A stretch of 28,274 bases of DNA from Parcubacteria group bacterium CG08_land_8_20_14_0_20_43_9. Lineage in GTDB: Bacteria; Patescibacteriota; Minisyncoccia; Minisyncoccales; PEYH01. Positions 227-25,159 of this stretch are shown in pieces; positions within the stretch are counted from its first letter, which is position 1; every line of letters starts with the position of its first letter. The notes under the pieces are model-generated. The model saw nothing but the letters and a program-made list of their open reading frames with translations. It did no database searches and had not been told where the DNA came from. The position numbers and the translations under genes were made by a program. The DNA lies in contig PEYH01000045.1 in assembly GCA_002774465.1 (NCBI GenBank), positions 3,115 to 31,388 of the forward strand. The letters run 5' to 3'.

Positions 227-240
227 ATTTTTAGTTTTAC

Positions 241-308
241 ATTTTTAATTTTGTTTTTACTTTACATTTTTAGTTTTACATTTTTATTTTAGGTTGCGAA
301 GCAACCGC
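241..308 (-). repeat. tRNA-Arg 3' trailer element, copy A
   Basis: GCGGTTGCTTCGCAACCTAAAATAAAAATGTAAAACTAAAAA starts right after the tRNA CCA; 42/42 identical to 23289-23330 and 65/68 to 25092-25159. Confidence 0.95.
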
Positions 309-385
309 TGGTGCCCCCGGAAGGATTCGGACCCTCAACCTTCGCGTCCGAAGCGCGACACTCTGTCCAGTTGAGCTACGGGGGC
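309..385 (-). tRNA. tRNA-Arg(TCG), CCA encoded
   Basis: GCCCCCG/CGGGGGC acceptor, A73, A20 in D-loop, anticodon arm TCGCG-CTTCGGA-CGCGA, T-arm GAGGG-TCCGAAT-CCTTC (C55 variant). Confidence 0.95.
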
Positions 386-393
386 CTGATTTA

Positions 394-422
394 ATTCTAT
401 ATTACCAATTGAAAAACCGCAA
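394..422 (-). promoter_or_regulatory. sigma70-type promoter for tRNA-Arg(TCG) and the pilin-like gene
   Basis: TTGCGG-17bp-TAGAAT on the minus strand, ending 8 nt upstream of tRNA base 1. Confidence 0.5.
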
Positions 423-437
423 GAATTAAGTTAGAAT
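409..437 (+). promoter_or_regulatory. sigma70-type promoter for cca, overlapping the divergent tRNA promoter
   Basis: TTGAAA(409-414)-17bp-TAGAAT(432-437); ATG at 446. Confidence 0.5.
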
Positions 438-445
438 TGGAGAAT

Positions 446-1918
446 ATGAGTATTCCCATAGAGGTAAAGAAAATAGTCAGCGTCCTTGAAAATAAAGGTT
501 TTCAGGCCTTTGTGGTCGGCGGGTGCGTCAGGGATTTATTGCGGGGAGTTGAGCCGAATGACTGGGACATAGCCACTAATGCCAACCCAAAGGAATTGGA
601 AAAGATGTTCCCTAAAAGTTTTAGCGCGAATAAATTCGGCACAGTAACGGTTTTGACTTCAAGCAAGAAGGACAACTTAAAAGAAATAGAAATAACCACC
701 TTCAGGACCGAAGAGAAATACACAGACAAAAGGCATCCGGACAAAGTCAGGTGGGCGAAGACAATTGAGGAGGATTTGGCGAGGAGGGACTTCAGCATCA
801 ACGCCGTAGCGTTGAAAATCCAAAATCCAAAATCCAAAATCCAAAATCACGAGATAATTGACCCTTTTAATGGGCAGAAGGATTTGGAGCATAAACTGAT
901 TCGGGCGGTCGGCCAGCCGGAAGACAGGTTTCAGGAAGATGCTTTGCGCCTGATGAGGGCAGTGCGCCTTGCCGCTGTTTTGAATTTTGACATAGAAAAA
1001 CAAACATTGTCGGCTGTCAGGAAAAACGCCGGGCTTCTGGAGTTTATTTCCAAAGAGCGGATTAGGGATGAGTTTTTGAAAATAGTGATGTCCGATAATC
1101 CGGACAAAGGCATAGAATCGTTAAGAGAGACGGGCCTTTTGAAACATATCATGCCCGAATTGCTGGAGGGTTATCAAGTGGGGCAGAATAAACATCATAT
1201 ATATGAAGTGTATGAGCACGCCATCAGGTCTTTGCAGTACGGGGCAAAAGAGGGCTTTAATAAATATGTTCGCTTAGCCGCTCTTTTTCACGATATCGGA
1301 AAGCCCAGAGCCAAAGAAGGCCAGGGAGCGGATTCAACCTTTTACAATCATGAGGTAATTGGCGCGAAAATGGCAGCCAAAATTTTGGAGCGCTTGAAAT
1401 TTTCAGGAAAAGATATAGAAAAGATTGTTAAGCTGGTAAGATATCATCTTTTTTACTACAATGTTGGCGAAGTGCAGGAATCGTCAGTCAGGCGGTTATT
1501 GGCGAAAATCGGAGCAGAGAATTTTGACGAGTTGGTGCAATTGAGAATGTGTGATAGGATTGGCTCTGGCTGTCCCAAAGCTCTTCCCTATAAGTTAAGG
1601 CATTTTCAGTATGTAGCGGACAAATTAGCCCTTGACCCTATTGATGTGACCACCTTAAAAGTGGGGGGAGACGATATTATGGAATCTTTGAAAATAGGGC
1701 CAGGTCCGAAAATAGGAAAAATTCTCTCTGTTCTTTTAGGGAAAATTCTTGATGAGCCAGAAAACAACAAGAAAGCTTATTTGAAAAAAAGAATCAAAGA
1801 GTTAGGCGCTCTTAATGAAAAAGAATTGGAGAGATTGGTCAGCCGGGCTAAAAATAAAAGAGAGGAAATTGTGACCAAGAGAGACGAGATGACCAAGAGG
1901 AAATATTGGGTGACATAA
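446..1918 (+). CDS. cca: CCA tRNA nucleotidyltransferase (class II) with HD domain
   Basis: Motifs VVGGCVRDLL, DWDIAT, RRDFSIN, EDALRLMRAVR, ERIRDEF and HD motif LFHDIGKP. ATG 446 preferred over track TTG 437. Four tRNAs in this window lack an encoded CCA. Confidence 0.92.
   Translation: MSIPIEVKKIVSVLENKGFQAFVVGGCVRDLLRGVEPNDWDIATNANPKELEKMFPKSFSANKFGTVTVLTSSKKDNLKEIEITTFRTEEKYTDKRHPDKVRWAKTIEEDLARRDFSINAVALKIQNPKSKIQNHEIIDPFNGQKDLEHKLIRAVGQPEDRFQEDALRLMRAVRLAAVLNFDIEKQTLSAVRKNAGLLEFISKERIRDEFLKIVMSDNPDKGIESLRETGLLKHIMPELLEGYQVGQNKHHIYEVYEHAIRSLQYGAKEGFNKYVRLAALFHDIGKPRAKEGQGADSTFYNHEVIGAKMAAKILERLKFSGKDIEKIVKLVRYHLFYYNVGEVQESSVRRLLAKIGAENFDELVQLRMCDRIGSGCPKALPYKLRHFQYVADKLALDPIDVTTLKVGGDDIMESLKIGPGPKIGKILSVLLGKILDEPENNKKAYLKKRIKELGALNEKELERLVSRAKNKREEIVTKRDEMTKRKYWVT
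815..848 (+). repeat. Heptamer tandem repeat (AAAATCC)x4 + AAAATC inside cca, read in frame as KIQNPKSKIQN
   Basis: Read directly at 815-848. Confidence 0.95.
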
Positions 1919-2034
1919 GAATGAAAAATGAAAAATGAAAAAATAAAAATGACGGATAAAAATCCAAAAAGAAATAAAATTTTAATTTTACATTGTTATT
2001 TTCCGTTTTTCGTTTTACATTTTTAATTTTCTTT
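1919..2034. repeat. Low-complexity spacer: A-rich heptamer-like tract followed by T-rich tract
   Basis: aatgaaaaatgaaaaatg... then ...tttttcgttttacatttttaa; 2006-2026 is the exact reverse complement of 25185-25205. Confidence 0.8.
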
Positions 2035-2108
2035 CGGGGCATAGTGTAGCAGCAACATTCACGATTCGGGTTCGTGCGACTCGGGTGCAATTCCCGATGC
2101 CCCGACCA
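2035..2108 (+). tRNA. tRNA-Pro(CGG), CCA encoded
   Basis: C1-G72, A73, CGGGGCA/TGCCCCG acceptor, anticodon arm CACGA-TTCGGGT-TCGTG; non-canonical D-loop AGCAGCA and T-loop TGCAATT. Confidence 0.9.
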
Positions 2109-2117
2109 ATAATTTCT

Positions 2118-2618
2118 ATGAGGAATTTTTTTGAAAAAACATCATGGCCTTTTCCGGGGTCTAAAAAAGAAACAACGGAATTCGGTAAAGCGAAAAGAGA
2201 TATTTCGGTTTGCGAAAAATGCGGAGCTGCATTTTGGCAAAAATCGTGGCATCGCAGATTGGAAGATATCCCGGATTATGAAAAAGAAAACACTCATTCC
2301 GGGATTTGCCCCGCCTGCCAAATGATAGCGGACAATCGTTATGAGGGGGAAATCATCATTGAGAATGTTCCGGAAGAGAAAAAAGGAGAAATAGAAAACC
2401 TAATCGGCAATTTCTCCGAGACCGCTTTTAGGGAAGACCCGATGGACAGGATTATCTCCATTCAGACGGTGGCCAAGGGAATGTTGAGGGTTTTGACCAC
2501 CGAGAATCAGATGGCCCAGCAGTTGGCCAAGAAAATAAAAAAAACGTTCAAAGGAAAGGTTTCCCTTACGCATTCCAGAAGGGAATCTACTCTCCGCGCA
2601 AAAATCATTTTACCATAG
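2118..2618 (+). CDS. BCAM0308/NMD3-like putative zinc-binding protein
   Basis: CEKCGAAF..KSWH and CPACQMIADNRYEGEI motifs; C-terminal LTTENQMAQQLAKKI. Start moved to ATG 2118 because track start 2085 lies inside tRNA-Pro. Confidence 0.6.
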   Translation: MRNFFEKTSWPFPGSKKETTEFGKAKRDISVCEKCGAAFWQKSWHRRLEDIPDYEKENTHSGICPACQMIADNRYEGEIIIENVPEEKKGEIENLIGNFSETAFREDPMDRIISIQTVAKGMLRVLTTENQMAQQLAKKIKKTFKGKVSLTHSRRESTLRAKIILP

Positions 2619-2634
2619 GGGCGAAGATGGCGCA

Positions 2635-2663
2635 TTGACACCAAAAGCAAAAGAAGATACTAT
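2635..2663 (+). promoter_or_regulatory. sigma70 promoter of the toxin-antitoxin operon
   Basis: TTGACA(2635-2640)-17bp-TACTAT(2658-2663). Confidence 0.75.
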
Positions 2664-2665
2664 GA

Positions 2666-2686
2666 TTGTAATACAAATTATTACAA
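2666..2686. promoter_or_regulatory. Probable operator for the RHH antitoxin
   Basis: Perfect inverted repeat TTGTAATA-caaat-TATTACAA over the predicted transcription start, 4 nt before the ATG. Confidence 0.65.
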
Positions 2687-2690
2687 AATT

Positions 2691-2906
2691 ATGAGAAAAA
2701 TAATAAACTTATCAGTGCCGGCAGGAATGGCAAAATCAATTGACGATATTGTCGCCAAAGGCAATTATGCCAGCAAAAGCGAGTTTTTCCGCGACCTTTT
2801 AAGAATGTGGATGGAGGGAAAAATCTTAAGAGAGCTGGGCGAGAGCCGGAGAGAGCTGTCTTCCGGCAAGGGGCAGGTACTGAGAACTCTTAAGGATTTG
2901 AGATAA
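2691..2906 (+). CDS. Ribbon-helix-helix (CopG/Arc/MetJ-type) antitoxin
   Basis: IINLSVP...IDDIV..GNYASKSEFFRDLLR is an RHH pattern; directly upstream of a RelE-like toxin. Confidence 0.8.
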   Translation: MRKIINLSVPAGMAKSIDDIVAKGNYASKSEFFRDLLRMWMEGKILRELGESRRELSSGKGQVLRTLKDLR

Positions 2907-2919
2907 AACCCTGCTTTTT

Positions 2920-3189
2920 ATGGTAAAAATTTTTTACTCAAGCAAGTTTGCTCGCGAATACCGCAAATTGCCTTTATCCGCCAAAAAGACGGCCGAAAAG
3001 AAAGAAAAGATTTTTAGAGAAAATCCTTTTGATTCAAAATTGAAGACCCATAAATTAAAAGGAGGATTGAGGGACTTTTGGTCTTTTTCTATTGATAGAA
3101 AGTATAGGATTATTTTTGAGTTCGCAACCGAAGAAAAGGTTTGGTTTCATTCTGTGGGGGCGCATGACATATATGGATTGTGGGAATAG
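2920..3189 (+). CDS. Type II toxin, RelE/ParE/YafQ-like mRNA interferase
   Basis: 89 aa, basic; SSKFAREYRKL, LKTHKLKG.L.DFWSFSIDRKYRIIF, VGAHDIY fit the RelE superfamily. Confidence 0.82.
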   Translation: MVKIFYSSKFAREYRKLPLSAKKTAEKKEKIFRENPFDSKLKTHKLKGGLRDFWSFSIDRKYRIIFEFATEEKVWFHSVGAHDIYGLWE

Positions 3190-3261
3190 GGCCATTAGCT
3201 CAGTCGGCAGAGCGCCGCACTCGCATTGCGGAGGTCGTCGGTTCGAATCCGACATGGTCCA
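3189..3261 (+). tRNA. tRNA-Ala(CGC), CCA not encoded
   Basis: GGGCCAT/ATGGTCC acceptor with G3:U70, anticodon arm CCGCA-CTCGCAT-TGCGG, TTCGAAT T-loop. Confidence 0.95.
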
Positions 3262-3280
3262 TTATATAATTTTATTGGGA

Positions 3281-3748
3281 ATGTCGTTTTATAAATACAT
3301 ATTATTAATTGCCATTGCCTTGTTTTTGTGCCTTGCGGCAATTTTGTTTTCTATGGCTAAAAAAGAAAATAATTCAGTTAAGGAGATTTATTTTAGGGAG
3401 AGATGTTTTAGAGCAGAGGTGGTAGAGACAATGGAACAGAGAGCCAAGGGCTTGATGGGGCGGGATGATTTGGCGGAAAATCAGGGGATGCTTTTTGTTT
3501 TTCCGGAACCGGGGCTCTATGGGTTTTGGATGAAAAATATGCTGATTTCCATTGACATTATCTGGCTGGACAAAGATTTGGCCATTACTCATATAGAGCA
3601 TAGTGTCCCGCCCTGCGAAGCCGACCCCTGCCCGGCTTATAATCCGCATTCCCCTTCCCAATATGTTTTGGAAATAAGGGCCGGGCTTGCCCAAGAATTA
3701 GAAATGAAAACAGGCGATAAATTTTATTTCAAAGGCAATGGCGATTAA
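3281..3748 (+). CDS. DUF192 family protein with N-terminal membrane anchor
   Basis: RAEVVET..QRAKGLMGR..L...GMLFVF, FWMKNMLISIDIIWLD, YVLEI.AG. Start moved to ATG 3281 because track start 3092 crosses the toxin and tRNA. Confidence 0.85.
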   Translation: MSFYKYILLIAIALFLCLAAILFSMAKKENNSVKEIYFRERCFRAEVVETMEQRAKGLMGRDDLAENQGMLFVFPEPGLYGFWMKNMLISIDIIWLDKDLAITHIEHSVPPCEADPCPAYNPHSPSQYVLEIRAGLAQELEMKTGDKFYFKGNGD

Positions 3749-4115
3749 TACTAAGGAAATCGGAGATATTGGAGAAGAGATTGCAAAAAAGTATTTGCAG
3801 GGCAAAGGGTATGAAATTCTGGACAGGAATTTTTTCAAAACAGTTAATGGATTAAAAATCGGAGAAATAGATATCGTGGCCCGCAAAGAAGGCGCGATTA
3901 TTTTTTTTGAAGTGAAAACGCTGACCGGGGACAGGAGGTTTGCGCCTGAATCAAAGGTTAATTTTCAGAAACAGGAAAAGATATCTAAAATCGCCCAAAT
4001 CTGGCTCGATGAAAACAATATTCCGCCGGATTCTCCCTGGCAGATAGACGCGCTGGCAATAGTCCTGGATTTTTCTTCGCGCAAGGCCAGGGTCAAACAT
4101 TTTCAGAACATTTAG
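3738..4115 (+). CDS. yraN: YraN (UPF0102) family putative endonuclease
   Basis: GDIGEEIAKKYL..KGYEILDRNF, GEIDIVA, FFEVKT, QIDALAI. Confidence 0.88.
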   Translation: MAINTKEIGDIGEEIAKKYLQGKGYEILDRNFFKTVNGLKIGEIDIVARKEGAIIFFEVKTLTGDRRFAPESKVNFQKQEKISKIAQIWLDENNIPPDSPWQIDALAIVLDFSSRKARVKHFQNI

Positions 4116-4138
4116 CCCCGTTTTTCAATAGGTTTCAC

Positions 4139-4166
4139 TTGACAGGAATCCTAGGATTGTTATTAT
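4139..4166 (+). promoter_or_regulatory. Candidate promoter upstream of nusA
   Basis: TTGACA(4139-4144)-16bp-TATTAT(4161-4166) with TG extended -10. Confidence 0.55.
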
Positions 4167-4176
4167 GAAAAAAGAA

Positions 4177-4201
4177 GGTCCAAGCAGTTGGGCCGTTTTT
4201 T
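4177..4201 (+). terminator. Intrinsic terminator-like hairpin in the nusA upstream region
   Basis: GGTCCAA-gcag-TTGGGCC followed by G and T6. Confidence 0.55.
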
Positions 4202-4226
4202 CTGAAATTAATTTTGTTAACAAGGG

Positions 4227-4283
4227 GCGGTCAACAAGGCCGGGCCTCATAAAGAGACCCGGACTCCTTGACCCGTTGACCGC
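4227..4283 (+). other. Multi-stem structured element upstream of nusA
   Basis: GCGGTCAAC(4227-4235)/GTTGACCGC(4275-4283) encloses AAGG/CCTT, CCGGG/CCCGG and CTC/GAG stems. Confidence 0.5.
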
Positions 4284-4301
4284 TCGTTGATAGATAAAAC
4301 C

Positions 4302-5657
<1,356 letters not shown>

Positions 5658-5672
5658 CAACCGCAATCAACT

Positions 5673-7661
5673 ATGAATTTGGTCTATATTCCTCTTATCG
5701 CATCAATCATAGATATTTTATTTGTCTTTTTATGGATTCGCCTTTTAAACAAATTGAGTTCTGGCCAGGAGAATCTGCAAAAAATAGCCGGAGCCATAAG
5801 AGAGGGCGCCAGGGCTTTTCTCAAAAGAGAATTTAAAGTGATGATAGTTGTTTTTCTGTTGGCGGCAATCGTGCTGGGGATTCTGAATAAAAATGTTTTA
5901 CCGTCGATTGTCTTTTTGATAGGCGCTTTTATTTCCAGCTTGGCCGGCTATGTGGGGATGATGGTTTCCACCTTAGCCAATGTGAGAACAACGGTTTCGG
6001 CCCAAAAAAGCTTTCCCGACTCATTCAAGACCGCTATCCGGGGTGGACAGGTTATGGGCTTCTTGGTCGTGGGGCTGGGGCTTTTAGGGGTGATTATCCT
6101 GTGGATGGTCTTCCAAGATGTCAATCTTCTAATCAATTACGCCTTAGGCGCTTCTTTGGTCGCTTTGTTTATGAGAGTGGGCGGAGGGATTTTTACTAAG
6201 AGCGCTGATGTGGGCGCTGATTTAGTCGGGAAAGTGGAAAAAGGAATCCCGGAAGACGACCCGAGGAATCCGGCGGTTATTGCCGACCAGGTAGGAGACA
6301 ATGTCGGGGACATTGCCGGCATGGGCGCAGACCTTTTTGAATCGTATGTTTCAACGATTATTGCCGCCATGGTAATCGGAGCCGTGGTTTTCGGAACAAA
6401 AGGCATAATTGCTCCCTTGTTCTTGGCGGGAATCGGGATTTTCAGCTCTTTATTAGGCACATTTTTTGTGCGCGTTTCCAAAAGCGCCCTGCAAGAAGAG
6501 TTTTCCAAACAAACCGAAAGCGTAAGAAAAGCCATGGGAAGGGGCGTATTTATTGCCAATGTTTTGATGATTGCCGGGTCATACTTTTTAATAACTATTC
6601 TTTTCAAAAGCATCGGCCTGTTTTGGGCCATTTTGTTCGGGTTGCTTGCCGGCTGGCTGATAGGCAAAACAAGCGAATATTTTTCTTCGGAAAAAAGAAG
6701 ACCGACTCTTGATATCGCAGAGGCAGGGAACAGCGGAGCGTCAAGCGTCATAATAGAGGGCTTGATTGTGGGAATGAAGAGCACGGTTCTGCCCGTCTTG
6801 GCAGTAGGAGCAACGATTGTTTTGTCTTACCATTTCGCCGGGCTTTATGGCATTGCCCTGGCTTCTCTCGGCATTCTGGGAGTGTTAGGCATAAATCTTT
6901 CCACTGACTGTTATGGGCCTATTGCCGACAATGCCGCCGGTATTGCGGAAATGGGCGGTTTGGGAAAAGAAATCAGGCAAAGGGTTGAGGCCCTGGATGC
7001 CGTAGGAAACAGTACGGCTGCAATCGGGAAAGGTTTTGCCATTGGTTCGGCCGCCTTGGCCTCCTTGGCTTGGCTGGCAACCTACGCGCAAAAGATTAAT
7101 GTTGCCTCAATAAATCTTTTAGAGCCGAAACTTCTTGCCGGCCTGTTTATCGGAGCGATGCTTCCTTTTATTTTTTCTGCCCTTACCATGAAAGGGGTGA
7201 GCAGAGGGGCCTTAGAAGTGGTCAAAGAGGTCAGGCGCCAATTCAGGGAAGTGCCCGGGTTGCTGGAGGGTACGGCTAAAGCTGATTATCGTTCCTGCGT
7301 TGATTTAGTGACCAAAAGAGCCATCAGAGAGATGCTGGCGCCCGGGATTTTAGTAGTTATTATGCCGATTTTAATCGGGTTGACTTTAGGCAAAGAGGCA
7401 GTGGCAGGAACATTAGTCGGGGCCTTAAGCAGCGGATTCCTGCTGGCTTTGTTTATGGCAAATTCAGGAGCGGCTTGGGACAATGCCAAAAAATATATTG
7501 AAGCAGGCAATCTCGGGGGCAAGGGTTCCGATGCCCACAAAGCGGCAGTAGTCGGAGATACGGTTGGAGACCCCTTTAAGGATACAGCCGGGCCGTCGCT
7601 GAATATCCTGATTAAGCTTATCAGCGTTGTGGCCCTTATATCATTAGCCCTATTTACTTAA
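5673..7661 (+). CDS. hppA: Membrane-bound pyrophosphatase, K+-dependent, probably Na+-translocating
   Basis: [76 protein letters not shown]; many TM helices. Confidence 0.97.
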
Positions 7662-7667
7662 AAACCA

Positions 7668-9429: not shown

Positions 9430-10959
9430 ATGAATCAACTTACCCTACTGATAGCGGGCTTTGTTGGCGCCGGGATAGGAGCAACCTTAGGGTATCTTAT
9501 TCGCCAATCAATCGCCAAAAAACAATTAGGCAGCATAGAGTTAAAGATTCAGAACAAGATAGCTCAAGCCAAGAAAGATGTTGACAGCATACTATCTCAA
9601 GCAGACAGCAAGGCCTCCGAAATAATCAAGAAGGCCAGAACCGAAGAAGAGCTGCGCAAGAGGGAATTTTTGAAAACCGAAAGATTTGTTTTGCAAAGAG
9701 AAAACGCTCTGCAGACAAAAATCACTGACTTGGATGAAAAAGAGAAACTGATTTATCAAAAGGCGGAAGAAATCAAAGAATTAAAAGAAAAATTGCAGGG
9801 GATGATAGACCAGGAAATCGGCAAGCTTGAAAATATTGCCCAGTTCAACAGGGATGAAGCCAAAAATGAGCTCTTGGAAAGGATAGAAAAAGAAGCGCAA
9901 AAAGAAATGATAGAAAGGATGATGCGCTTAGAGCGTGAAGGAGAGGAAAAATTGAAAGAGAGAGCCAAAGAAATAGTAGCCCTGGCTATTCAAAGGTGCG
10001 CTTTGCCGCAAGCCCAGGACATAACCACAACCACGGTTAATCTCCCTTCAGACAAAATCAAGGGGCGGATTATCGGAAAGGAGGGGAGGAATATAAAGGC
10101 GTTTGAAAAGGCAACCGGGATTGAGGTGGTGGTTGACGAAACGCCGGAGGCAATAACTATTTCCGGGTTTAATCCCTACCGGCGCTATATCGCCAAAAGG
10201 GCGATGGAAAAATTGATAGAGGACGGCAGAATACAGCCGGCGAGAATTGAAGAGATAGTGGCCAGGGTGGAGGAAGAAGCGGTTGAGCAGGTGAAGCAGG
10301 CCGGAGACGCGGCCGTTTACGAAACCGGAGTGCTGGATTTGGACCCGAAATTAGTGGAATTGCTTGGACGGCTCCGCTTCAGAACAAGTTTTGGCCAGAA
10401 TGTTCTTTTGCACTCCATAGAGGTTTCGCTTCTAAGCGGGATGCTGGCTGAAGAAATCGGCGCTGATGTAAGGGTGGCGAGAAAAGCGGGATTATTGCAT
10501 GACATCGGCAAGGCCATGGATCATCAGGTTCAGGGGTCGCATACTGATATCGGCATTAAGATTTTGGAGAAATTCGGAGTGGAGAAAGAAACTATCAACG
10601 CCATGAAGTCGCATCATGAGGAATATCCCTACGAGAACATTGAATCACACATAATACAGGCGGCTGACCAGATTTCCGGAGCTCGGCCCGGAGCGAGGAA
10701 AGATACTTTGGAGAATTATCTCAAAAGATTGGGCGACTTGGAGAATATCGCCAATTCCTTTGAAGGAGTGGAAAAAACATATGCTATTCAGGCAGGCAGA
10801 GAATTAAGGGTTTTTGTAAAGCCGGAAGAGATTGATGATTTGGCGAGTGAGCGATTGGCGCGGGATATTGCCAAAAGGATATCAGAGGAGTTAAAATATC
10901 CAGGAGAGATAAAAGTGGTGCTTATCAGGGAAAAAAGGATTATAGAGTACGCCAAGTAA
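9430..10959 (+). CDS. rny: Ribonuclease Y
   Basis: N-terminal TM anchor, coiled coil, KH domain (KGRIIGKEGRNI), HD domain (LLHDIGKA), C-terminal YAIQAGRELRV and YPGEIKVVLIRE. Confidence 0.97.
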   Translation: MNQLTLLIAGFVGAGIGATLGYLIRQSIAKKQLGSIELKIQNKIAQAKKDVDSILSQADSKASEIIKKARTEEELRKREFLKTERFVLQRENALQTKITDLDEKEKLIYQKAEEIKELKEKLQGMIDQEIGKLENIAQFNRDEAKNELLERIEKEAQKEMIERMMRLEREGEEKLKERAKEIVALAIQRCALPQAQDITTTTVNLPSDKIKGRIIGKEGRNIKAFEKATGIEVVVDETPEAITISGFNPYRRYIAKRAMEKLIEDGRIQPARIEEIVARVEEEAVEQVKQAGDAAVYETGVLDLDPKLVELLGRLRFRTSFGQNVLLHSIEVSLLSGMLAEEIGADVRVARKAGLLHDIGKAMDHQVQGSHTDIGIKILEKFGVEKETINAMKSHHEEYPYENIESHIIQAADQISGARPGARKDTLENYLKRLGDLENIANSFEGVEKTYAIQAGRELRVFVKPEEIDDLASERLARDIAKRISEELKYPGEIKVVLIREKRIIEYAK

Positions 10960-18109: not shown

Positions 18110-18167
18110 AGACCCGCCTATTTCGCTCGCAGGGGCTTGAAATTAAATTATACATAAAACTCAATCA

Positions 18168-19172: not shown

Positions 19173-20628
19173 AAGAAAAGGATTCATCATCACCTATATC
19201 CTGGTATTTGGTTCGGTGTTTATGATTTTGTTAATAGCGGTTTCGGGCTTTGTTTTAAGCCAGATGAGGCAGGCGAAATATGAGTTGGCTTACGAACAAT
19301 CGTTGCATATTGCGGAGGCGGGATTGAATAGATACAAATGGTACTTGTTGCATAAGGAGCAGGAACTCTTTGGAGGGGTTGAGATTGGGTGCCCGCCTTC
19401 GGATTGCGCTTCCTGCGCCCCTTGCGAATATGAATTCTCTTTGCCCGGCGCAGGCGCTCTCGGGAAATATCGGTTAGAAGTTCTTGAAGAAAGGGCCTGC
19501 GATATAACCACCTCTGTTCAGGTGGTTTCCACGGGCTGGACCTATCAGTTTCCGGACGCTGACCGGAGTATAAGGGTTCATTATATCAAGCCGACGGTGG
19601 CTGAATATTCTTATATCCTTAACCACAATGTTTGGGCCGGCGACGACAGGATTATTATGGGGCCGTATCACTCCAACGGAGGCATCCGGATGGACGGCCA
19701 GAATAATTCTTTTGTCAGCTCCGAGCAGATTCAGTGGTCTTGCACTGATTCGTATGGCTGTTCGTCCTGTCCCCTGGAATGCGCTTATAGCCCGTCTCAA
19801 GGATGCCTTTGCCCGGGCGTTTTCACCACCGCCAACGGCAATGAGGATTTGTTCCGGATAGATGCCCCCCATTTTGATTTTGAGGGGATTACTATTGACT
19901 TAGGAATAATCAAAGGGCTTACTCAACCCCCGCCCGAGGGCCAAGGCAAGGGTTTATATCTGCCTCCCTCAAACGCTTACGGTTATCATGTTATAATCAA
20001 TCAAAGACAGTTGTCGGTGAGGAAGATAGAGAGAGTCAGCAGGGTCTATGCCTATGATACGGATTTAGGTTATTTTTGGGAATATTCAATCATTGACCGC
20101 GAAGGCGCCGCTGTTAATTATAATTTGAGCGACTGCGGGCTGGTTTTTATAGAAGATAATGTCTGGCTTCAGGGCACAATAAGCGGCAAGATTACTCTGG
20201 CAGCGGCGGACCTTATCAGCCCGTCGGTGACCAGGAATGTTTGGTTAAAGGATGACATAGTGTATTTAAATCCGGATAATTCGGACAGCTTGGTTGTCAT
20301 GGGACAGAATAATGTTTTAATAACGCCGGACTCGCCGGATTATTTGGACTTACACGGGGTATTCATCGCCCAAACCGGCCATTTCGGCAGAAATTATTAT
20401 TCTCCTTACACTTATCCCAATTATGCCAAAAAAGAACAGTTGAACATGCTTGGGTCTGTTATAAGCAACGGGAGGGTCGGCACCAAATGGACTTCAGGGA
20501 GCGTGTGGGTTTCAGGGTACCGGGAGAGGCGGAATATTTATGACCCGACAATGAGTTTTAACCCCCCGCCTTTTCTGCCCTCCATTTCAGAAGAGTTTAG
20601 CTATAAAAAGTGGGAAGAAATACAATGA
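19165..20628 (+). CDS. PilX-like minor pilin
   Basis: KG|FIITYILVFGSVFMILLIAV without E5, SLHIAEAGL motif, Cys-rich segments; overlaps the upstream gene by 8 nt. Confidence 0.7.
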   Translation: MNKRKGFIITYILVFGSVFMILLIAVSGFVLSQMRQAKYELAYEQSLHIAEAGLNRYKWYLLHKEQELFGGVEIGCPPSDCASCAPCEYEFSLPGAGALGKYRLEVLEERACDITTSVQVVSTGWTYQFPDADRSIRVHYIKPTVAEYSYILNHNVWAGDDRIIMGPYHSNGGIRMDGQNNSFVSSEQIQWSCTDSYGCSSCPLECAYSPSQGCLCPGVFTTANGNEDLFRIDAPHFDFEGITIDLGIIKGLTQPPPEGQGKGLYLPPSNAYGYHVIINQRQLSVRKIERVSRVYAYDTDLGYFWEYSIIDREGAAVNYNLSDCGLVFIEDNVWLQGTISGKITLAAADLISPSVTRNVWLKDDIVYLNPDNSDSLVVMGQNNVLITPDSPDYLDLHGVFIAQTGHFGRNYYSPYTYPNYAKKEQLNMLGSVISNGRVGTKWTSGSVWVSGYRERRNIYDPTMSFNPPPFLPSISEEFSYKKWEEIQ

Positions 20629-21722
20629 AATTTGATTTGCTCAACTTGAATCCCGGGACTTTTGGGTTAGATATTTCCGACCGGTCTTTGAAGGCGGTTT
20701 TTTTAAAAAAACACAAGAGGTCTTTAAGAATAGGGGGCTTTGAAGAAGTTTTTTTGCCGGAAGGAATAATTCGCGGAGGCGAAGTCCAGGATATGGAAAA
20801 ACTGGCGGTTTTTATTAAAAAGACGAGCGGGAAATTGAAAGGTCTTGAAACCAGGCAAGTTATTCTTTCTTTGCCGGAAGAGAAGTCGTTTATCCGGCTC
20901 TTAAGAATGCCGGCCATGAGTGTGCCGGAAATCAAGGCGGCCGTGCGGTTTGAGGCGGAGAATTATATCCCTTTCTCGGCAGACAAGGTTTATCTTGATT
21001 CCCAAATTGCTCAATTTCCGGGAGAGAGCAGGGACTATATGGAAGTTTTGGTCGCCGCTTTGCCTAAAAAAACCGTTGACTCTTACGTAGCGGCGATCTA
21101 TGGCGCCGGACTGATACCGGTGGCCATGGAAACCGAATCGCAGGCAACGGCCAGAGCGCTGATAAAGGGCTCTTACGCTCCGAAACCTGTTTTTATAGTT
21201 GATATGGGCGCAACTTCTACCAACTTCAGCGCTTATCTCGGCAATTCATTGCGCTTCACCTCATTTATTACTTTTTCCACCAATAGCTTAGGGACGGTCT
21301 TATCTGAAGCATTGAAGATAAGCCCGGAAGAAGCGGCTAAGGCCCAAGTCCTTTACGGATTCCAAAAGAAAGGAGGCAGAGCAAAGAGGATATTTGAAGT
21401 ATTGTCTCCCGCAATGGCAGTGTTTATCGCAGAGATTGATAAGCATATTGATTATTATCAAGCCCATTCTTTTCAAGGAAAAGGAAACGGTATTAAAGAA
21501 GGCGTCCGCGAGTTGATTTTATGCGGCGGCGGGGCAAGAATTAAGGGCTTAGCAACCTTTGTTTCCCAAAAAACAGGGCTAATCGTCCAAAAAGGAAATC
21601 CGTTAGCGAATCTTCCTTGGGAGGAAAAATTAAATAAGAAGATATTGAAGGACGATCTCCTCCCTTTTTCTACGGCAATAGGGCTTGCTCTAAGAGGATA
21701 CAGGCCGGCATTATATGATTAA
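20625..21722 (+). CDS. pilM: Type IV pilus assembly protein PilM (actin-like)
   Basis: FGLDISDRSLKAV, FEAENYIPF, VDMGATST, LCGGGARIKGL, TAIGLALRG; ATG 20625 overlaps the upstream TGA. Confidence 0.9.
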   Translation: MKFDLLNLNPGTFGLDISDRSLKAVFLKKHKRSLRIGGFEEVFLPEGIIRGGEVQDMEKLAVFIKKTSGKLKGLETRQVILSLPEEKSFIRLLRMPAMSVPEIKAAVRFEAENYIPFSADKVYLDSQIAQFPGESRDYMEVLVAALPKKTVDSYVAAIYGAGLIPVAMETESQATARALIKGSYAPKPVFIVDMGATSTNFSAYLGNSLRFTSFITFSTNSLGTVLSEALKISPEEAAKAQVLYGFQKKGGRAKRIFEVLSPAMAVFIAEIDKHIDYYQAHSFQGKGNGIKEGVRELILCGGGARIKGLATFVSQKTGLIVQKGNPLANLPWEEKLNKKILKDDLLPFSTAIGLALRGYRPALYD

Positions 21723-22248
21723 TCTTTTACCTCCAATTGAAAAAAGTAAGCGCAGGCAAGAGAGATTGCTGAAGTTGACATGGATTTTAGGCGTCTTAAC
21801 GGTGGCGTCAGCGCTCTCGTTCGCCCTTATTTTGCTTTCCGTAAGATTTTACATCGCCGACCAGATTAGGATACAAGACGTCTTAGTGGATGAGGCGAAG
21901 GGCAAAAACATCAAAGTCAATATTTTGCAGGAGAAAATAAAAACGGTTAATTATACCCTGTCCGGATTGAACGATTTTTATCAGAGTCAATTTCCGCTGA
22001 CGGATTTCTTGGGGAGGATTTCCCTACTGCTTCTCCAAGATATGTATTTGGAGAGGTTTTCGTATCAAAAAGAAAATTTTCAGGCGACCTTCACCTGTCA
22101 TGCGCCGACCATTGATTCTATTTACGAGTTCCGGGAAGCAATGAGAAGCCAGGGCGATTTCAAGGATGTCAATTTTGTCTTGCCGGACTGGCTTGAACCG
22201 AATAACATTACATTCAGAGTAAGTTTTAAGTTGAACAATGAATTATAG
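21715..22248 (+). CDS. pilN: PilN-like protein
   Basis: MINLLPP motif (PilM-binding INLLP), single TM, position after pilM. Confidence 0.75.
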   Translation: MINLLPPIEKSKRRQERLLKLTWILGVLTVASALSFALILLSVRFYIADQIRIQDVLVDEAKGKNIKVNILQEKIKTVNYTLSGLNDFYQSQFPLTDFLGRISLLLLQDMYLERFSYQKENFQATFTCHAPTIDSIYEFREAMRSQGDFKDVNFVLPDWLEPNNITFRVSFKLNNEL

Positions 22249-22810
22249 GCAGAAATTATATGTTTCCATATTTTCCATAATCTTCGCGGTTTTATTATTG
22301 TTTGTTTTTTGCATTCTGCCGGCCTTGAAGGCGATTGCTTCAAGTTCCCGGGAGTTGGCGCTTCGCCGGCAGGAGCTCGCCTCCATTGAGTATCTGGCGG
22401 AAAGCTTTGAGGATTTTGAGAAGAATTTCCAGTTCTACGAGGACGGCCTTGCCGAAATGGAGGAACTGCTTCAGCGGGAATCCTTAATTGACCCCGAGAT
22501 TCCGGTAAGTTTTATTAATTTTTTCAAAGAAGAAGCGTCAAATCTCAATCTTGTTTTAAAAATTTTTCCGATTGCTTTTCATGAAAACAAAAATGGGCAA
22601 TGGAATTATATGAGTTTTAAGATAGAAGGCAAGGGTCGGTTTATTGACATAATGAAATTTCTTGAGAAACTGGAAAACAGCCGGTGGCTTATTAGCGAGG
22701 TTAGTTTTGATATTTTGAGCTCAAATGAGACCCTGGCCAAGGAAGAACCAAAATTTGGGGGAGAATATGCGGAAATTTATCTTTCAATAGAGGTCTATGC
22801 CAAAGATTAA
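22238..22810 (+). CDS. pilO: PilO-like protein
   Basis: N-terminal TM, coiled coil, IEGKGRFIDIMKFLEKLEN pattern, position after pilN. Confidence 0.7.
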   Translation: MNYRQKLYVSIFSIIFAVLLLFVFCILPALKAIASSSRELALRRQELASIEYLAESFEDFEKNFQFYEDGLAEMEELLQRESLIDPEIPVSFINFFKEEASNLNLVLKIFPIAFHENKNGQWNYMSFKIEGKGRFIDIMKFLEKLENSRWLISEVSFDILSSNETLAKEEPKFGGEYAEIYLSIEVYAKD

Positions 22811-23114
22811 TTTTAAAATAAATATTAAGGGCGTTAGGCGGGCGATAACAAAAATTTTTTGGCTTTTGGGGCGAAGGGCTTTTGTCGGGTTTTTAATTTT
22901 CTTTTTCATCGGTCTGTTTATCGGGGGCGTGATTTTTTATTATTACGGATTTTTAGTCGTAGTCCGGGAGCCGGAAATAAGGCCGTACGAGGTAAGATTA
23001 GACGACCAGCTGTACCAGCAGTTCCTTGAGAGCTATCGGCAAAGAAGGGTAAGTTTTGACAATGCCGGCTTTAAATTGTATTTTAATCCCTTTTTTCACT
23101 CAAATATTAAATAA
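22797..23114 (+). CDS. Small membrane protein ending the pilus operon
   Basis: 105 aa, one TM, overlaps the pilO stop; no recognisable motif. Confidence 0.65.
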   Translation: MPKINFKINIKGVRRAITKIFWLLGRRAFVGFLIFFFIGLFIGGVIFYYYGFLVVVREPEIRPYEVRLDDQLYQQFLESYRQRRVSFDNAGFKLYFNPFFHSNIK

Positions 23115-23172
23115 ATGATTTTAGCGCTATGGGCGCGCCTCAAGAGGTTTGCCCGCTTCGGGTGGACGGACC

Positions 23173-23201
23173 TTGATTCAGGGGCGCTTTTGTCGTATAG
23201 T
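23173..23201 (+). promoter_or_regulatory. Promoter for tRNA-Arg(TCT) and tRNA-His
   Basis: TTGATT-17bp-TATAGT, 10 nt before tRNA base 1. Confidence 0.6.
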
Positions 23202-23211
23202 GTCAGCACCA

Positions 23212-23288
23212 GCCCTCGTAGCATAATTGGATAATGCAGGGCCCTTCTAAGGCCAAGATTAGAGGTTCGAGTCCTCTCGAGGGCACCA
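23212..23288 (+). tRNA. tRNA-Arg(TCT), CCA encoded
   Basis: GCCCTCG/CGAGGGC acceptor, A20, loop CTTCTAA, AGAGG-TTCGAGT-CCTCT. Confidence 0.95.
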
Positions 23289-23330
23289 GCGGTTGCTTCG
23301 CAACCTAAAATAAAAATGTAAAACTAAAAA
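23289..23330 (+). repeat. tRNA-Arg 3' trailer element, copy B
   Basis: Identical to 267-308 (minus) over 42 nt. Confidence 0.95.
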
Positions 23331-23383
23331 CTGAAAACAGAAGATAAAATTAATAATTAATAATTAATGATTAATATTGTTAT

Positions 23384-23456
23384 GGTGGTCGTAGTGTAGT
23401 GGTTAGCACAAGAATCTGTGGAATTCTTAGGGGGAGTTCGAATCTCCTCGACCACC
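23384..23456 (+). tRNA. tRNA-His(GTG) with encoded G-1, CCA not encoded
   Basis: G-1/C73, GTGGTCG/CGACCAC acceptor, AGAAT-CTGTGGA-ATTCT, TTCGAAT. Confidence 0.95.
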
Positions 23457-23463
23457 AAAAATC

Positions 23464-23495
23464 CCAGAAACCCTTGTATTCACAAGGGTTTTTGG
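23464..23495. terminator. Terminator between tRNA-His and the convergent fic gene
   Basis: CCAGAAACCCTTGT-attc-ACAAGGGTTTTTGG hairpin. Confidence 0.75.
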
Positions 23496-23562
23496 TTAAA
23501 AAGATTGATTTTTAAAATAAATTATTACTATTATGGGCGGATAATTGTTGGGTTGAGGATTT

Positions 23563-24690
23563 TTATTTTTTAAATAAATTAAGATATTCGGTTAACTCAA
23601 ACAGGCGGTTTCGCGAAAAACCAGTGATTTCTTTTAGTAATCCAAGTTTCTCCATGTCAGCGAGTAAGTGATTGGCCGTATTAAATGTTATTTTGAACTG
23701 ATTCATTACGGTTTTTGAGCTAACAATTGGCTGAGAAAATAGAAATAGTAAAACTTCGTTAGCAATTTTAGTCCGCCTGCCAAGTAGCATAATTTTCTTT
23801 TCATAATTCTGTCGTAGCTTAACTATTTTTTGAAACGTTTCTTTGCCCCTTTTTGAGATATCGATGACTCCATTGAGAAAAAATTTAACCCATTGCTCAA
23901 TATCATTAGATGAACGAACCACCGTTAAAGAATTATAATAACTACCCTTGTTCTTCTCAAAAAAGGCGGATAAATATAATGTTGGGTATTTTAGAATCCC
24001 GCGTTCAATCATTTGGAGAATTATTATTAATCTGCCAATTCTTCCATTCCCATCTAAAAAAGGATGGATGGTTTCAAATTGATAATGGCAGATCGCTATT
24101 TTGATGAGAATGGGTATCTGCAGGCTTTTGTTATGCCAAAACTTTTCCCAATCAGTCAACAATTCTGGTAATTCATCTTTGTGAGGCGGAATAAAGAAAG
24201 CATCCGATAAATTAGAGCCGCCTATCCAATTTTGACTATTCCTTATTTCGCCAGGCGATTTATGTTCGCCCCTAACGCCCGATAGCAGAATTTTGTGGGC
24301 ACTCTTTATAAGACGGATCGATAAAGGAATTTTTTGCAATTCGGCAATGACAAAATTCATTGCCTTGATATAATTTTGAACCTCCTGCCAATCATCTATT
24401 TTTTCAGGGCGTATTTCTTCTTTTGGCAAAATCGCCTCATTGATTTCGGTTTTAGTCCCTTCTATTCTGCTCGAGATAGTGGCTTCTTTTATTGAATGGG
24501 CTTTTATAAAAAAATTAACATCTGGCACTAAAATAGAATAAGCATTTAATTCGCCCAAATAACGAACAGCCTCCTCCAATAGCAGGTCAATCTTTTTATC
24601 CTTAAAGTCAAATTCGTGATTGATTGTAGACGGAGCAAAACTTTTATACTCGTTTTGTTGTTTATAATATCCTGATGTAAATTTGATCAT
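23563..24690 (-). CDS. fic: Fic family protein (class II, N-terminal inhibitory motif, C-terminal wHTH-like region)
   Basis: Catalytic motif [12 protein letters not shown], inhibitory [21 protein letters not shown] 24690 preferred; the track TTG 24720 lies in the promoter/operator. Confidence 0.93.
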
Positions 24691-24694
24691 ATTC

Positions 24695-24761
24695 TTGAGA
24701 TATAAATATTTATATCTCAATTTTATGAACTTATTTGAAATATGTCAATAATATATCTCAA
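24695..24761 (-). promoter_or_regulatory. fic promoter with two operator-like inverted repeats
   Basis: Minus-strand TTGACA(24748-24743)-17bp-TAAAAT(24725-24720); perfect 26-bp palindrome 24695-24720; second site TTGAAATAT-N9-ATATCTCAA at 24735-24761. Confidence 0.75.
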
Positions 24762-24941
24762 ATTTTAATTTATAACACTTTTCGTAATATTATACTTCCA
24801 AATATTTTAGTCGGAATTGATCCCGGCTCGATTAGTTTATGATATAAGAAATTTTACCCCAAACAGGTTCTGACATCCCTTCTTCACTAAAGCTACGGAC
24901 AGGCAATGCGTACGCTAGTCGACTCAAACAAAATAACACTC

Positions 24942-24965
24942 AAAAAGCCCGCTAACGGGTTTTTT
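24942..24965. terminator. Orphan terminator-like hairpin
   Basis: AAAAAGCCCG-ctaa-CGGGTTTTTT. Confidence 0.55.
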
Positions 24966-25016
24966 AAATTTCAAAATCTTGTTTTAAGTCCCCAAAAATG
25001 ATAATCTTATTTTAAC

Positions 25017-25091
25017 GCCCCCATAGTTCAAGGGACAGAACAAGGGACTCCTAAGCCCTAGATCCAGGTCCGAGTCCTGGTGGGGGCACCA
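25017..25091 (+). tRNA. tRNA-Arg(CCT), CCA encoded
   Basis: GCCCCCA/TGGGGGC acceptor, A20, loop CTCCTAA (A31-G39 mismatch), CCAGG-TCCGAGT-CCTGG (C55). Confidence 0.9.
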
Positions 25092-25159
25092 GCGGTTGCT
25101 TCGCAACCTAAATTAAAAATGTAAAACTAAAAATGAAAAGTAAAAACAAAATGAAAAAT
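25092..25159 (+). repeat. tRNA-Arg 3' trailer element, copy C
   Basis: 41/42 to copy B; 65/68 to copy A. Confidence 0.95.

Follow-up and report, generated by a model that had tools for sequence, protein, structure and literature searches.

Three tRNA-Arg genes within the window, the whole 28,274-nt stretch of Parcubacteria DNA analysed here, are each followed directly after the encoded CCA by the same short repeat. Its core is a stem-loop whose pairing is maintained by selection, and in several Paceibacteria lineages it lies where a tRNA, or in rare cases a protein gene, meets the gene downstream. Rather than a jumping element, the motif is probably a signal for RNA processing or stability that has so far gone undescribed, and we give about an even chance to the fuller reading that it is a selected, structured RNA module at the junction of tRNA and downstream RNA, serving processing and 5′-end protection, with the copies in the source genome derived from recent copying. 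The features concerned are listed below by window position.

2..226, minus strand: 5′ part of a conserved 200-218-aa ORF with a hydrophobic N-terminal segment and no Pfam match, lying downstream of tRNA-Arg(TCG) and its module in the source genome (G000), G002 and G004
227..291, minus strand: A-rich leader of copy A, reaching as far as the start codon (ATG) of the next ORF; the first 51 nt of this leader also occur in copy C (65/68 from the GC on)
292..308, minus strand: core of copy A, with GC (308-307), stem GGTTGC (306-301), loop TTC (300-298) and stem GCAACC (297-292); predicted to fold as an isolated hairpin beside the tRNA cloverleaf
309..385, minus strand: tRNA-Arg(TCG), CCA encoded (ARAGORN; Rfam tRNA)
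437..1918, plus strand: CCA-adding enzyme gene with three Pfam domains (PolyA_pol head, RNA-binding, HD), located next to tRNA-Arg(TCG) in divergent orientation and given as context only
9430..10959, plus strand: RNase Y gene (TIGR03319, 592 bits, over the cut-off), candidate endonuclease of the proposed mechanism
23173..23201, plus strand: promoter-like site TTGATT-17-TATAGT just upstream of tRNA-Arg(TCT) (consensus match only)
23212..23288, plus strand: tRNA-Arg(TCT), CCA encoded (ARAGORN)
23289..23330, plus strand: copy B, 42 nt, equal to copy A by sequence match; hairpin at 23291-23305
23331..23383, plus strand: locus-specific A/T-rich spacer, with orthologues between Arg(TCT) and His in G001 and G004
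23384..23457, plus strand: tRNA-His(GTG) (ARAGORN), then a canonical hairpin-plus-T-run terminator
25017..25091, plus strand: tRNA-Arg(CCT), CCA encoded (ARAGORN)
25092..25159, plus strand: copy C, 68 nt, matching copy A at 65/68 positions; hairpin at 25094-25108
25113..25249, plus strand: 72-nt tandem duplication (1.9 copies, 98%) within the A-rich spacer of copy C
25305..25381, plus strand: tRNA-Ala(GGC) (ARAGORN), then tyrS at 25417-26628

The shared 42-mer occurs in the window at 267-308 (minus), 23289-23330 (plus) and 25092-25133 (plus), the first base of every copy being the base right after the tRNA CCA, and shuffled versions of the window contained no match to it. Copies A and B are identical at 42/42 positions and diverge beyond, and copies A and C match at 65 of 68, in agreement with the first-pass annotation. 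Its account of divergent tRNA-Arg bodies with a common 3′ end also held, with 51-54 of ~77 positions in common between bodies (~66-70% alike) and identity between copies extending 8-10 nt into the tRNA 3′ end (GGGCACCA or GGGGGCACCA). ARAGORN called the ten tRNAs that the annotation had placed in the window, and the trailer is missing from the other seven, as claimed; in the genome as a whole it follows none of the 33 other detected tRNAs, tRNA-Arg(CCG) among them. Across the entire 463-kb assembly the hairpin is found at only three places, the trailers of tRNA-Arg TCG, TCT and CCT; the genome-wide listing of copies thus placed all of them behind tRNA-Arg and none elsewhere, although not every tRNA-Arg has one. 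Two copies had been described as leading into further genes, a count that needs correction, as all three lead into a gene on the same strand (the 200-aa ORF; tRNA-His; tRNA-Ala followed by tyrS). That the repeat was created by assembly has next to no chance of being true. Although the assembly is a draft, a metagenome bin in 54 contigs, and a 50-nt repeat breaks contigs assembled at k=31, read-derived contigs from four groundwater runs cross every junction of tRNA with repeat and of repeat with flank, a contig from a separate metagenome assembly (99.87% identity over 3746 nt) covers both the TCT and CCT loci, and the same architecture is present at orthologous loci of sister genomes. The loci are upheld by this junction check and misassembly, which the annotation had named as a concern, is effectively refuted.

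The core motif reads GC, GRYYRC, UUC, GYRRYC, UAAAWU, that is, a 6-7 bp stem with a UUC-type loop and two unpaired bases (GC) ahead of it, after which an A-rich leader reaches to the next same-strand gene; in the window copies the stem has 6 bp with four G-C pairs, at about -8 kcal/mol. Among nine copies from four genomes of the genus, 54 of 54 stem cells are Watson-Crick and four of the six pairs vary on both sides, with no one-sided change. None of the shuffles attained the observed pairing or covariation, and slid registers of the alignment paired at only 24-48%. The six stem versions all conform to GRYYRC/GYRRYC, all are Watson-Crick, and they differ by paired transitions only, a path that runs via G-U pairs, while the loop, the GC ahead of the stem and the TAA behind it are invariant. 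These observations show that selection has kept the stem paired. Its position is fixed as well, with onset 5 nt after the discriminator (N73) in 15 of 16 tRNA copies, or 2 nt after an encoded CCA, independent of whether the three intervening bases are CCA, CAA, CTT, TAA or TCA. Rfam models matched the window only at its tRNAs, with nothing meaningful for the trailer at E values up to 5.

Within the genus the motif stands behind 8 of 23 tRNA-Arg genes versus 2 of 156 other tRNA genes and, by locus type, at 4 of 5 Arg types versus 1 of 35 others. The source genome has three copies and its sister genomes 0-3 (the motif is absent from G003), all directly behind a tRNA. Relatives also carry it behind tRNA-Leu(CAG), tRNA-Lys(CTT), tRNA-Leu(GAG), tRNA-Tyr(GTA) and two protein genes, in the last case directly behind the stop codon. 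A covariance model located it in five other families (three with tRNA-Tyr as its host, one with tRNA-Leu(GAG) and one with rpmJ) and, in another order of the class, behind a CDS. Outside this genus there is no Arg specificity. The proposal of an Arg-family-specific 3′ processing, stability or regulatory trailer therefore survives in part: a trailer fits the evidence, but specificity for Arg does not, since relatives have the motif behind Leu, Lys and Tyr tRNAs and protein genes. In a metagenome scan using a pattern that did not require the stem to pair, 9 of 9 matches that pair lie directly behind a tRNA, compared with 0 of 13 that do not. A same-strand tRNA or ORF begins ~20-200 nt downstream of 13 of 16 copies, with the conserved 200-aa ORF, RNase J, rpsM and tRNA-His, Ala, Val and Thr among these downstream genes; in G125 and G096 the next tRNA begins 23-32 nt past the stem. 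Few genomes have the motif, and their distribution is patchy (5 of 150 sampled in the order and 1 of ~145 others in the class), and therefore it is not a general requirement for tRNA maturation.

The combination of an invariant loop and flanks with a stem that need only pair, together with enrichment at tRNA-Arg genes in this family, might also be expected of a binding site for a specific protein, an RNA or DNA palindrome co-regulating the flanked genes, for instance in arginine-tRNA supply. This is quite improbable given that the hosts vary by lineage (Tyr, Leu, Lys, rpmJ), that no candidate regulator is linked to the motif, and that sequence conservation would be expected of a DNA operator, yet four of six half-site positions swap. 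The trailer could instead be freed as a stable small RNA with its own function, like the E. coli leuZ 3′ external transcribed spacer; its conservation and structure fit this, and a 5′ hairpin would stabilise the freed fragment. We consider this very improbable, as beyond the stem there is A-rich sequence of low complexity, such as occurs in dozens of this genome's intergenic regions, this sequence is not conserved in length, and nothing ahead of the next gene signals a 3′ end.

A GC-rich hairpin right at a gene end, behind two protein genes as well as tRNAs, resembles the terminators of compact genomes, and an unconventional terminator or attenuator, ending or throttling tRNA transcription before the next gene with a hairpin that lacks a U-run, could be imagined, all the more as rA:dT hybrids are fairly weak. 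However, the stem is followed by UAAAWU and an A-rich tract (UAAAAUAAAAAUG) rather than a U-run, a terminator scan made no call at any copy, and the same genome has canonical hairpin-plus-T-run terminators behind tRNA-His, Gly(TCC) and Val(CAC). The short distance from stem to next tRNA in G125 and G096, and the lack of any promoter-like call in the spacer (23331..23383) before tRNA-His, also argue against termination, which we regard as decidedly unlikely. The earlier statement that the hairpin is not an intrinsic terminator is borne out, the canonical intrinsic type being excluded by the missing U-run and the absence of terminator calls at the hairpins.

Comparison of orthologous loci indicates how the three copies arose. 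In G002 the Arg(TCG) orthologue shares its stem and A-rich start with the source genome, with CTT replacing CCA. The Arg(TCT) orthologues in G001 and G004 have a different stem (GACCAC) within an otherwise orthologous spacer, which measures ~90 nt in G000, G001 and G004 versus 2 nt in G003, and no motif follows the orthologous Arg(CCT) in G001, G003 or G004, so that this site is occupied in G000 only. A related genome has the same motif version behind tRNA-Lys(CTT), whose 3′ end is that of Arg(CCT); on the contig studied here the last 20 nt of tRNA-Arg(CCT) are likewise those of tRNA-Lys(CTT). As judged from these comparisons, the three near-identical copies are recent, and the version native to Arg(TCG), together with the CCA, has been copied to Arg(TCT) and Arg(CCT) at their 3′ ends. 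This most likely happened by recombination or gene conversion, through the tRNA 3′ end that the genes have in common and through A-rich or older motif sequence, gene conversion across such short homology being what we infer from the patterns. At this locus, trailers have been copied from one tRNA 3′ end to another inside one small genome.

The same patchy occupancy, the identical copies within the source genome and the scatter of a near-identical core across families could be produced by a small non-autonomous mobile element (REP/PATE-like or other) inserting behind tRNA 3′ ends, its stem kept paired for a transposase that reads folded DNA, and the genome does contain two Y1-transposase (IS200/RAYT-like) proteins (28.7 and 24.1 bits to Y1_Tnp) and several low-copy palindrome families. 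Yet there are just 1-3 copies per genome, each at a gene end and at fixed offset, with the left edge inside the tRNA end, an inconsistent right boundary (42 vs 68 nt), and neither terminal inverted repeats nor target duplications found. No constant target appears in the bases ahead of the GC, the motif was not found in viral contigs, and compensatory change by transitions only is the usual signature of an RNA helix. A mobile element is therefore unlikely, and its specific form in the first-pass annotation, an element targeting GGGCACCA ends, fails on several counts, as two tRNA-Lys with that end in the same genome have no trailer, the genome total is three, and relatives carry the motif behind non-CCA ends (CTT, CAA, TAA, TCA). 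A transposase with matching ends was sought, and the palindromes beside both Y1 genes proved to be other sequences. The expected occupied and empty sites do exist among relatives, but no target duplication accompanies them. An integrase attachment site was rejected separately: every copy adjoins a different, complete tRNA, the sole integrase-family gene is on another contig, and housekeeping genes lie between the copies.

In the processing and protection reading that we favour, the stem-loop would act in the transcript, where an endonuclease would separate the tRNA from the stem. The candidate is RNase Y, whose cuts are known to fall a few nucleotides, at a constant distance, upstream of a structure. 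In S. aureus saePQRS a duplex positions the RNase Y cut 6 nt upstream of itself, and the downstream fragment is stabilised (PMC5449607). Cleavage would release the tRNA 3′ end, in an organism without detectable RNase Z or RNase E, and the downstream RNA would then begin with a hairpin that would shield it from the 5′-3′ exonuclease RNase J. RNase Y (in the window) and RNase J are both encoded. Profile searches of draft genomes found no RNase E/G in the source genome and no RNase Z in the source genome or five relatives, with 0 of 81 genomes of the order over the RNase Z cut-off. Against this model stand the shortness of the stem, at 6-7 bp far below the 24 bp of the sae element, and the specificity of RNase Y in B. 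subtilis, described as diffuse (PMC11780869). It also fits poorly with the protein-gene copies, where cleavage at 5-6 nt ahead of the stem would coincide with the stop codon, and it leaves the Arg bias within this family unaccounted for.

RNA processing in the candidate phyla radiation is little known experimentally. In this lineage about half of the tRNA genes lack an encoded CCA, and the profile searches recovered neither RNase Z, at the cut-off in 81 genomes of the order, nor RNase E/G, in the source genome. A short covarying motif at a fixed offset offers a concrete, testable handle on how tRNA 3′ ends are formed under these conditions, and is relevant to the mRNA 5′ ends of genes behind tRNAs, including those for RNase J, ribosomal protein S13 and a conserved secreted protein. 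If the motif is only a stabilising hairpin, the element would be of an ordinary type and only its setting would be new.

Among known systems, the motif resembles RNase Y sites guided by downstream structure, such as S. aureus saePQRS and the B. subtilis cggR-gapA junction, in having an intercistronic stem a fixed few nucleotides past the presumed cut (PMC5449607), in a predicted cut that would leave a 5′ hairpin and a stabler downstream RNA, and in the presence of both RNase Y and RNase J. It differs from saePQRS in that the stem is 6-7 bp rather than 24 bp, the upstream partner is a tRNA, flanks and loop are conserved, and the cut is a predicted one. As in E. coli tRNA transcripts with a terminator hairpin right after the CCA (leuX), or with an RNase E cut 1-3 nt after the CCA, the hairpin abuts the tRNA 3′ end and its removal is needed for maturation (PMC2811032, PMC2190699). 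The E. coli hairpins have U-runs, end the transcript and are removed by RNase E, PNPase or RNase P, whereas the trailer here has no U-run, is followed by a gene, and belongs to a genome in which RNase E/G was not found. With REP elements and their RAYT (Y1) transposases the motif shares short extragenic palindromes at gene ends, compensatory variation and Y1-like genes in the genome; REPs, however, number tens to hundreds of copies and flank the RAYT gene, unlike a motif with 1-3 copies at fixed offset and not beside Y1 genes. In enterobacteria 3′ETS(leuZ), reportedly described by Lalaouna et al. in 2015, is said to be a functional tRNA trailer that acts as an Hfq-dependent sRNA sponge and has the operon terminator at its end. 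Like the present motif it is a conserved 3′ trailer of a tRNA whose role, putative here, goes beyond discard, but nothing points to base-pairing targets for the present trailer. In mitochondrial tRNA punctuation, tRNAs ahead of mRNAs set the mRNA ends through tRNA processing. The module considered here differs in its bacterial lineage, in the extra hairpin at the new 5′ end and in being used at only some junctions. A bolder and doubtful proposal is that in Paceibacteria without RNase Z and RNase E a cis-encoded ruler hairpin 5 nt past the discriminator guides a nuclease of the RNase Y/J type to form the tRNA 3′ end and, in the same step, caps the mRNA or pre-tRNA that follows at its 5′ end, which would amount to bacterial tRNA punctuation with a dedicated RNA signal.

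The same element lies behind all three tRNA-Arg genes of the window, as the first-pass annotation had described. Of the ten tRNA genes that ARAGORN found in the window, three are tRNA-Arg, and the 42-mer reported earlier matched three times, each time from the first base past the CCA of one of these genes; none of 100 shuffled windows contained a match.

309-385, minus strand: tRNA-Arg(TCG), followed by copy A (ARAGORN)
23212-23288, plus strand: tRNA-Arg(TCT), followed by copy B (ARAGORN)
25017-25091, plus strand: tRNA-Arg(CCT), followed by copy C (ARAGORN)

The reported similarities were also reproduced: copies A and B are identical across 42 nt and diverge beyond, 65 of 68 positions are the same in copies A and C, and the identity extends 8-10 nt back into the tRNA end, while the tRNA-Arg bodies have just 51-54 of ~77 positions in common. 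The window is part of contig C36 of a 463-kb genome bin (G000; 54 contigs, 43% G+C), and this hairpin was not found in the bin beyond the three copies, either at random non-tRNA sites or behind the other 33 detected tRNAs, so that its reported absence from other tRNAs holds for the whole bin. The tRNA-Arg(CCG) of G000 has neither an encoded CCA nor the hairpin, a tRNA-Arg(ACG/GCG) is missing from the bin, and tRNA-Lys(CTT) and tRNA-Lys(TTT) both end in GGGCACCA and both lack it. The last 20 nt of tRNA-Arg(CCT) (window 25072-25091), comprising the 3' strand of the T-arm, the acceptor and CCA, are identical to those of tRNA-Lys(CTT) (C36:86-105). Since these two hairpin-free tRNA-Lys both end in GGGCACCA, targeting of any such end, suggested earlier, is excluded as a rule. 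Three other features lie close to copies B and C:

20610-23114, plus strand: pilM-led run of type IV pilus genes, stopping just before tRNA-Arg(TCT)
23563-24720, minus strand: gene of the Fic/DOC family with an HTH tail, located after the TCT and before the CCT locus
25113-25249: 72-nt tandem duplication (1.9 copies, 98%) in the A-rich spacer between tRNA-Arg(CCT) and tRNA-Ala(GGC)

Repeat-driven misassembly, the technical explanation raised at first, does not account for the three copies. In four groundwater runs, contigs run out of each tRNA through the first 30 nt of the 50-nt repeat, and others lead from the repeat into each flank. These Logan contigs stop 30 nt into the repeat, as expected at k=31, and confirm each junction but cannot join the flanks across the repeat; that link is provided by an independently assembled metagenome contig, L296, which covers the TCT and CCT loci at 99.87% identity over 3746 nt. 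The match to L296 ends at L296:3746 (~window 25384), right past tRNA-Ala(GGC), where the window goes on into tyrS and L296 does not, which could reflect a strain rearrangement or a contig that is chimeric at a tRNA. Another organism in the same samples (runs X2/X3, at window 25093) has at least 31 nt of the Arg(CCT) 3' end in common with the window, and past CCAG its loose contig ends hold a different immediate stem-loop, CTTGCGC-TCC-GCGCAAG.

The A-rich part of the repeat (AAAAATG, AAAACTA and like heptads) is the general intergenic style of G000, with loose matches at dozens of sites on many contigs, and it was discarded as part of a mobile unit because the same heptad-like sequence fills dozens of intergenic regions. 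The distinctive core consists of GC, a 6-bp stem (GGTTGC/GCAACC) with the loop TTC, and then TAAA, and it folds as an isolated hairpin beside the tRNA cloverleaf. No T-run follows the stem and a terminator scan called none at the hairpins, in agreement with the earlier view that this is not an intrinsic terminator. Nine aligned copies give 54 stem cells, every one of them Watson-Crick, with double-sided changes in four of the six pairs and single-sided changes in none; neither the pairing nor the covariation score was reached in any shuffle, and only 24-48% of cells paired when the register was slid. The stem versions (GGTTGC, GGCCGC, GACCAC, GACCGC and GGTCGC, plus GATTGC(C) in another family) all fit GRYYRC and differ by transitions alone, and neither the loop nor either flank varies, which is what selection on a helix at the RNA level would be expected to look like. 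Three other identities were considered and dropped: mimicry of an anticodon (the loop CUUCG equals positions 32-36 of tRNA-Arg(UCG)), as the same loop stands behind Arg(TCT), Arg(CCT), Tyr and Leu; a promoter with TAAAAT as -10 and the 17-nt hairpin as spacer, as the -35 would be the variable tRNA end, a poor match; and a single CRISPR-like repeat, as there are no arrays.

The RNase Y of the window places the organism in the Patescibacteria, Paceibacteria/Parcubacteria group, near Candidatus Nealsonbacteria. For an unbiased survey of its genus, the Rfam tRNA model was used to retrieve every tRNA locus of four other species (G001-G004), and the trailers of these loci were read. The module was present at the same offset behind Arg(TCG) in G002 and G004, Arg(TCT) in G001 and G004, Arg(GCG) in G002, and Leu(CAG) in G004 and G001, and no copy was found in G003; the G004 count excludes the trailer of its tRNA-Lys(CTT) (L093), which reads as N, and one more copy is possible there. 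A related metagenome contig, L279, carries the hairpin module behind tRNA-Lys(CTT). The three bases between the discriminator and GC are CCA, CTT, CAA or TAA, and this variability indicates that the encoded CCA is not part of the signal. Within the genus, 8 of 23 Arg genes carry the module versus 2 of 156 other tRNA genes, and by locus type 4 of 5 versus 1 of 35 (Fisher p about 3e-4 by locus), counts that predate, and so omit, the Lys(CTT) copy. The Arg enrichment in this genus is real, but the module is not an Arg-specific device, its hosts elsewhere being Tyr, Leu and Lys. The bias may reflect copying among similar 3' ends.

Such copying would also explain why the three copies in G000 are so alike. 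Copy A has its stem and the beginning of its A-rich part in common with the Arg(TCG) trailer of G002, and the Arg(TCG) locus is therefore the likely source of the G000 version. G001 and G004 have a GACCAC stem in an Arg(TCT)-His spacer whose distal part is orthologous to the one in G000, so that the first 42 nt and the CCA at Arg(TCT) of G000 read as replaced by the TCG-type version; in G003, only 2 nt separate Arg(TCT) from His. No such motif was found behind Arg(CCT) of G001, G003 and G004. The paralogous copies of G004 differ from one another, which shows that identity is not required for function. A right boundary at 42 nt in one pair and 68 nt in the other, with the left one inside the shared tRNA end, looks like conversion tracts and not like element ends, and together with the patterns at orthologous loci this suggests recent recombination or gene conversion between tRNA 3' ends.

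The first-pass annotation had given a small non-autonomous element targeting such tRNA ends as one of two readings. Comparison of occupied and empty sites across G001-G004 showed patchy occupancy, as a transposing element would give, with other families of trailer sequence at the orthologous sites that lack the module, but no defined element ends; copy number is also low and the offset from the gene ends is fixed. No integrase or transposase with matching ends came to light: the sole integrase-family gene of G000 is on another contig than the window, and the palindromic repeats on either side of the two genes for Y1-transposase-like proteins are other sequences, particular to each gene: TTGGAAACCWGGTTTCCAA, and a ~110-nt direct repeat holding TTACGATGCCGGGTGGCGTAA.

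C52:6908-7162 (= L164:1435-1941), minus strand: Y1-transposase gene, IS200/RAYT-like
C51:21263-21511 (= L165:1309-2019), plus strand: Y1-transposase gene, IS200/RAYT-like

We rate transposition low, and the module is probably not a transposon.

Beyond the genus, two covariance models built from module copies were used to search 150 genomes from the order, 150 from the class and the family's 26. Clear matches lie directly behind tRNA-Tyr(GTA) in three families (G053, G126, G125) and tRNA-Leu(GAG) in a fourth (G096), a weaker variant lies behind tRNA-Arg(GCG) in another genus of the organism's own family (G012), and two matches stand right past a TAA stop codon, of rpmJ in G097 and of a CDS in G183. 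Weak matches in G050, G112, G129 and G165, and a second in G126, were set aside as chance, being within coding sequence or non-pairing. The module is rare, being present in 5 of the 150 genomes sampled from the order; a rerun of that search with an improved model returned the same matches, and searching the families of G126 and G096 (2 and 1 genomes) gave nothing further. JGI metagenome contigs were scanned with a degenerate pattern that fixes the loop and flanks and does not require pairing, and all nine pairing matches were behind a tRNA versus none of 13 non-pairing ones, a clean internal control. Viral contigs gave no match, no Rfam family matched the trailer at gathering or relaxed thresholds, and a literature search for hairpins in tRNA trailers of the candidate phyla radiation gave no result.

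Stem-loops directly behind a tRNA seem to recur in this family. Those of Arg(TCG) and Arg(TCT) in genus g7 are different from the module and begin 3 nt after the discriminator. A second trailer family, a ~45-nt AT-rich long hairpin with folding energies of -11 to -16 kcal/mol, begins immediately past the discriminator; within the genus it stands behind Glu(TTC), Val(GAC), Phe, Ile(TAT), Arg(TCG) or Arg(GCG), depending on the genome, and in two other genera behind Arg(CCT). A third, longer family behind CCA-ending tRNAs has the inverted repeat GAATCAA...TTGATTC around ACTTTCAGAAATTTTG, then a GC-rich hairpin, and over 70 nt of it are identical behind Arg(CCT) and Leu(TAA) of G002 (L063, L061). 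GC-rich palindromic insertions also occur in the T-arm region of Leu(CAG) of G001 (L187:1530-1625, minus strand) and of tRNA-Gly(CCC) of G001 (L115) and G002 (L051).

C13:730-801 trailer, outside the window: second family; further sites in L119 (Arg(TCG) of G001), L090 and L077 (G004)
C36:1-85, outside the window: trailer of the third family, behind tRNA-Lys(CTT) at C36:86-161
Window 28153-28230: looser relative of the third family, behind tRNA-Ser(CGA)

A same-strand gene follows within about 20-200 nt in 13 of 16 copies, which makes the module intercistronic rather than terminal. Downstream are a conserved 200-218-aa ORF (Arg(TCG), three genomes), RNase J (Leu(CAG)), rpsM (rpmJ) and a conserved 118-120-aa ORF (Tyr), and in some copies the next tRNA is as close as 23 nt. 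The nuclease repertoire of G000 is of the Gram-positive type, with RNase J and RNase Y present and RNase E/G not found.

Window 9430-10959: RNase Y gene

RNase Z was not found in G000 or five relatives, and none of the order's 81 genomes that are at least 90% complete gave a match above the curated cut-off; weak TIGR02651 matches proved to be RNase J or membrane-anchored ComEC-like metallo-beta-lactamase proteins. CCA is not encoded in about half of the tRNA genes.

In Staphylococcus aureus, an RNase Y cut is set 6 nt upstream by a downstream duplex, and the downstream fragment is stabilised (PMC5449607). By analogy, a stem 5 nt after the discriminator would put an RNase Y-type cut at the tRNA 3' end, and the new 5' end of the downstream RNA would lie 0-5 nt from a hairpin. 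Stem-loop stabilisers at the 5' end block 5'-end-dependent decay by RNase J, and the hairpin would thus block such decay of the downstream RNA. This mechanism would explain why the offset is fixed, why the stem must pair and why the module is intercistronic, and it fits poorly with the two copies at stop codons, the shortness of the stem, the rarity of the module and the Arg bias; in its specific form, as ruler and cap, we consider it unlikely. The observation itself is real and non-random, and a selected stem-loop at RNA junctions combined with recent copying, as covariation and tract boundaries suggest, is a reading to which we give an even chance. We regard the module as a candidate new RNA motif with a putative function; its general kind, the cis-acting intercistronic stem-loop, is known.
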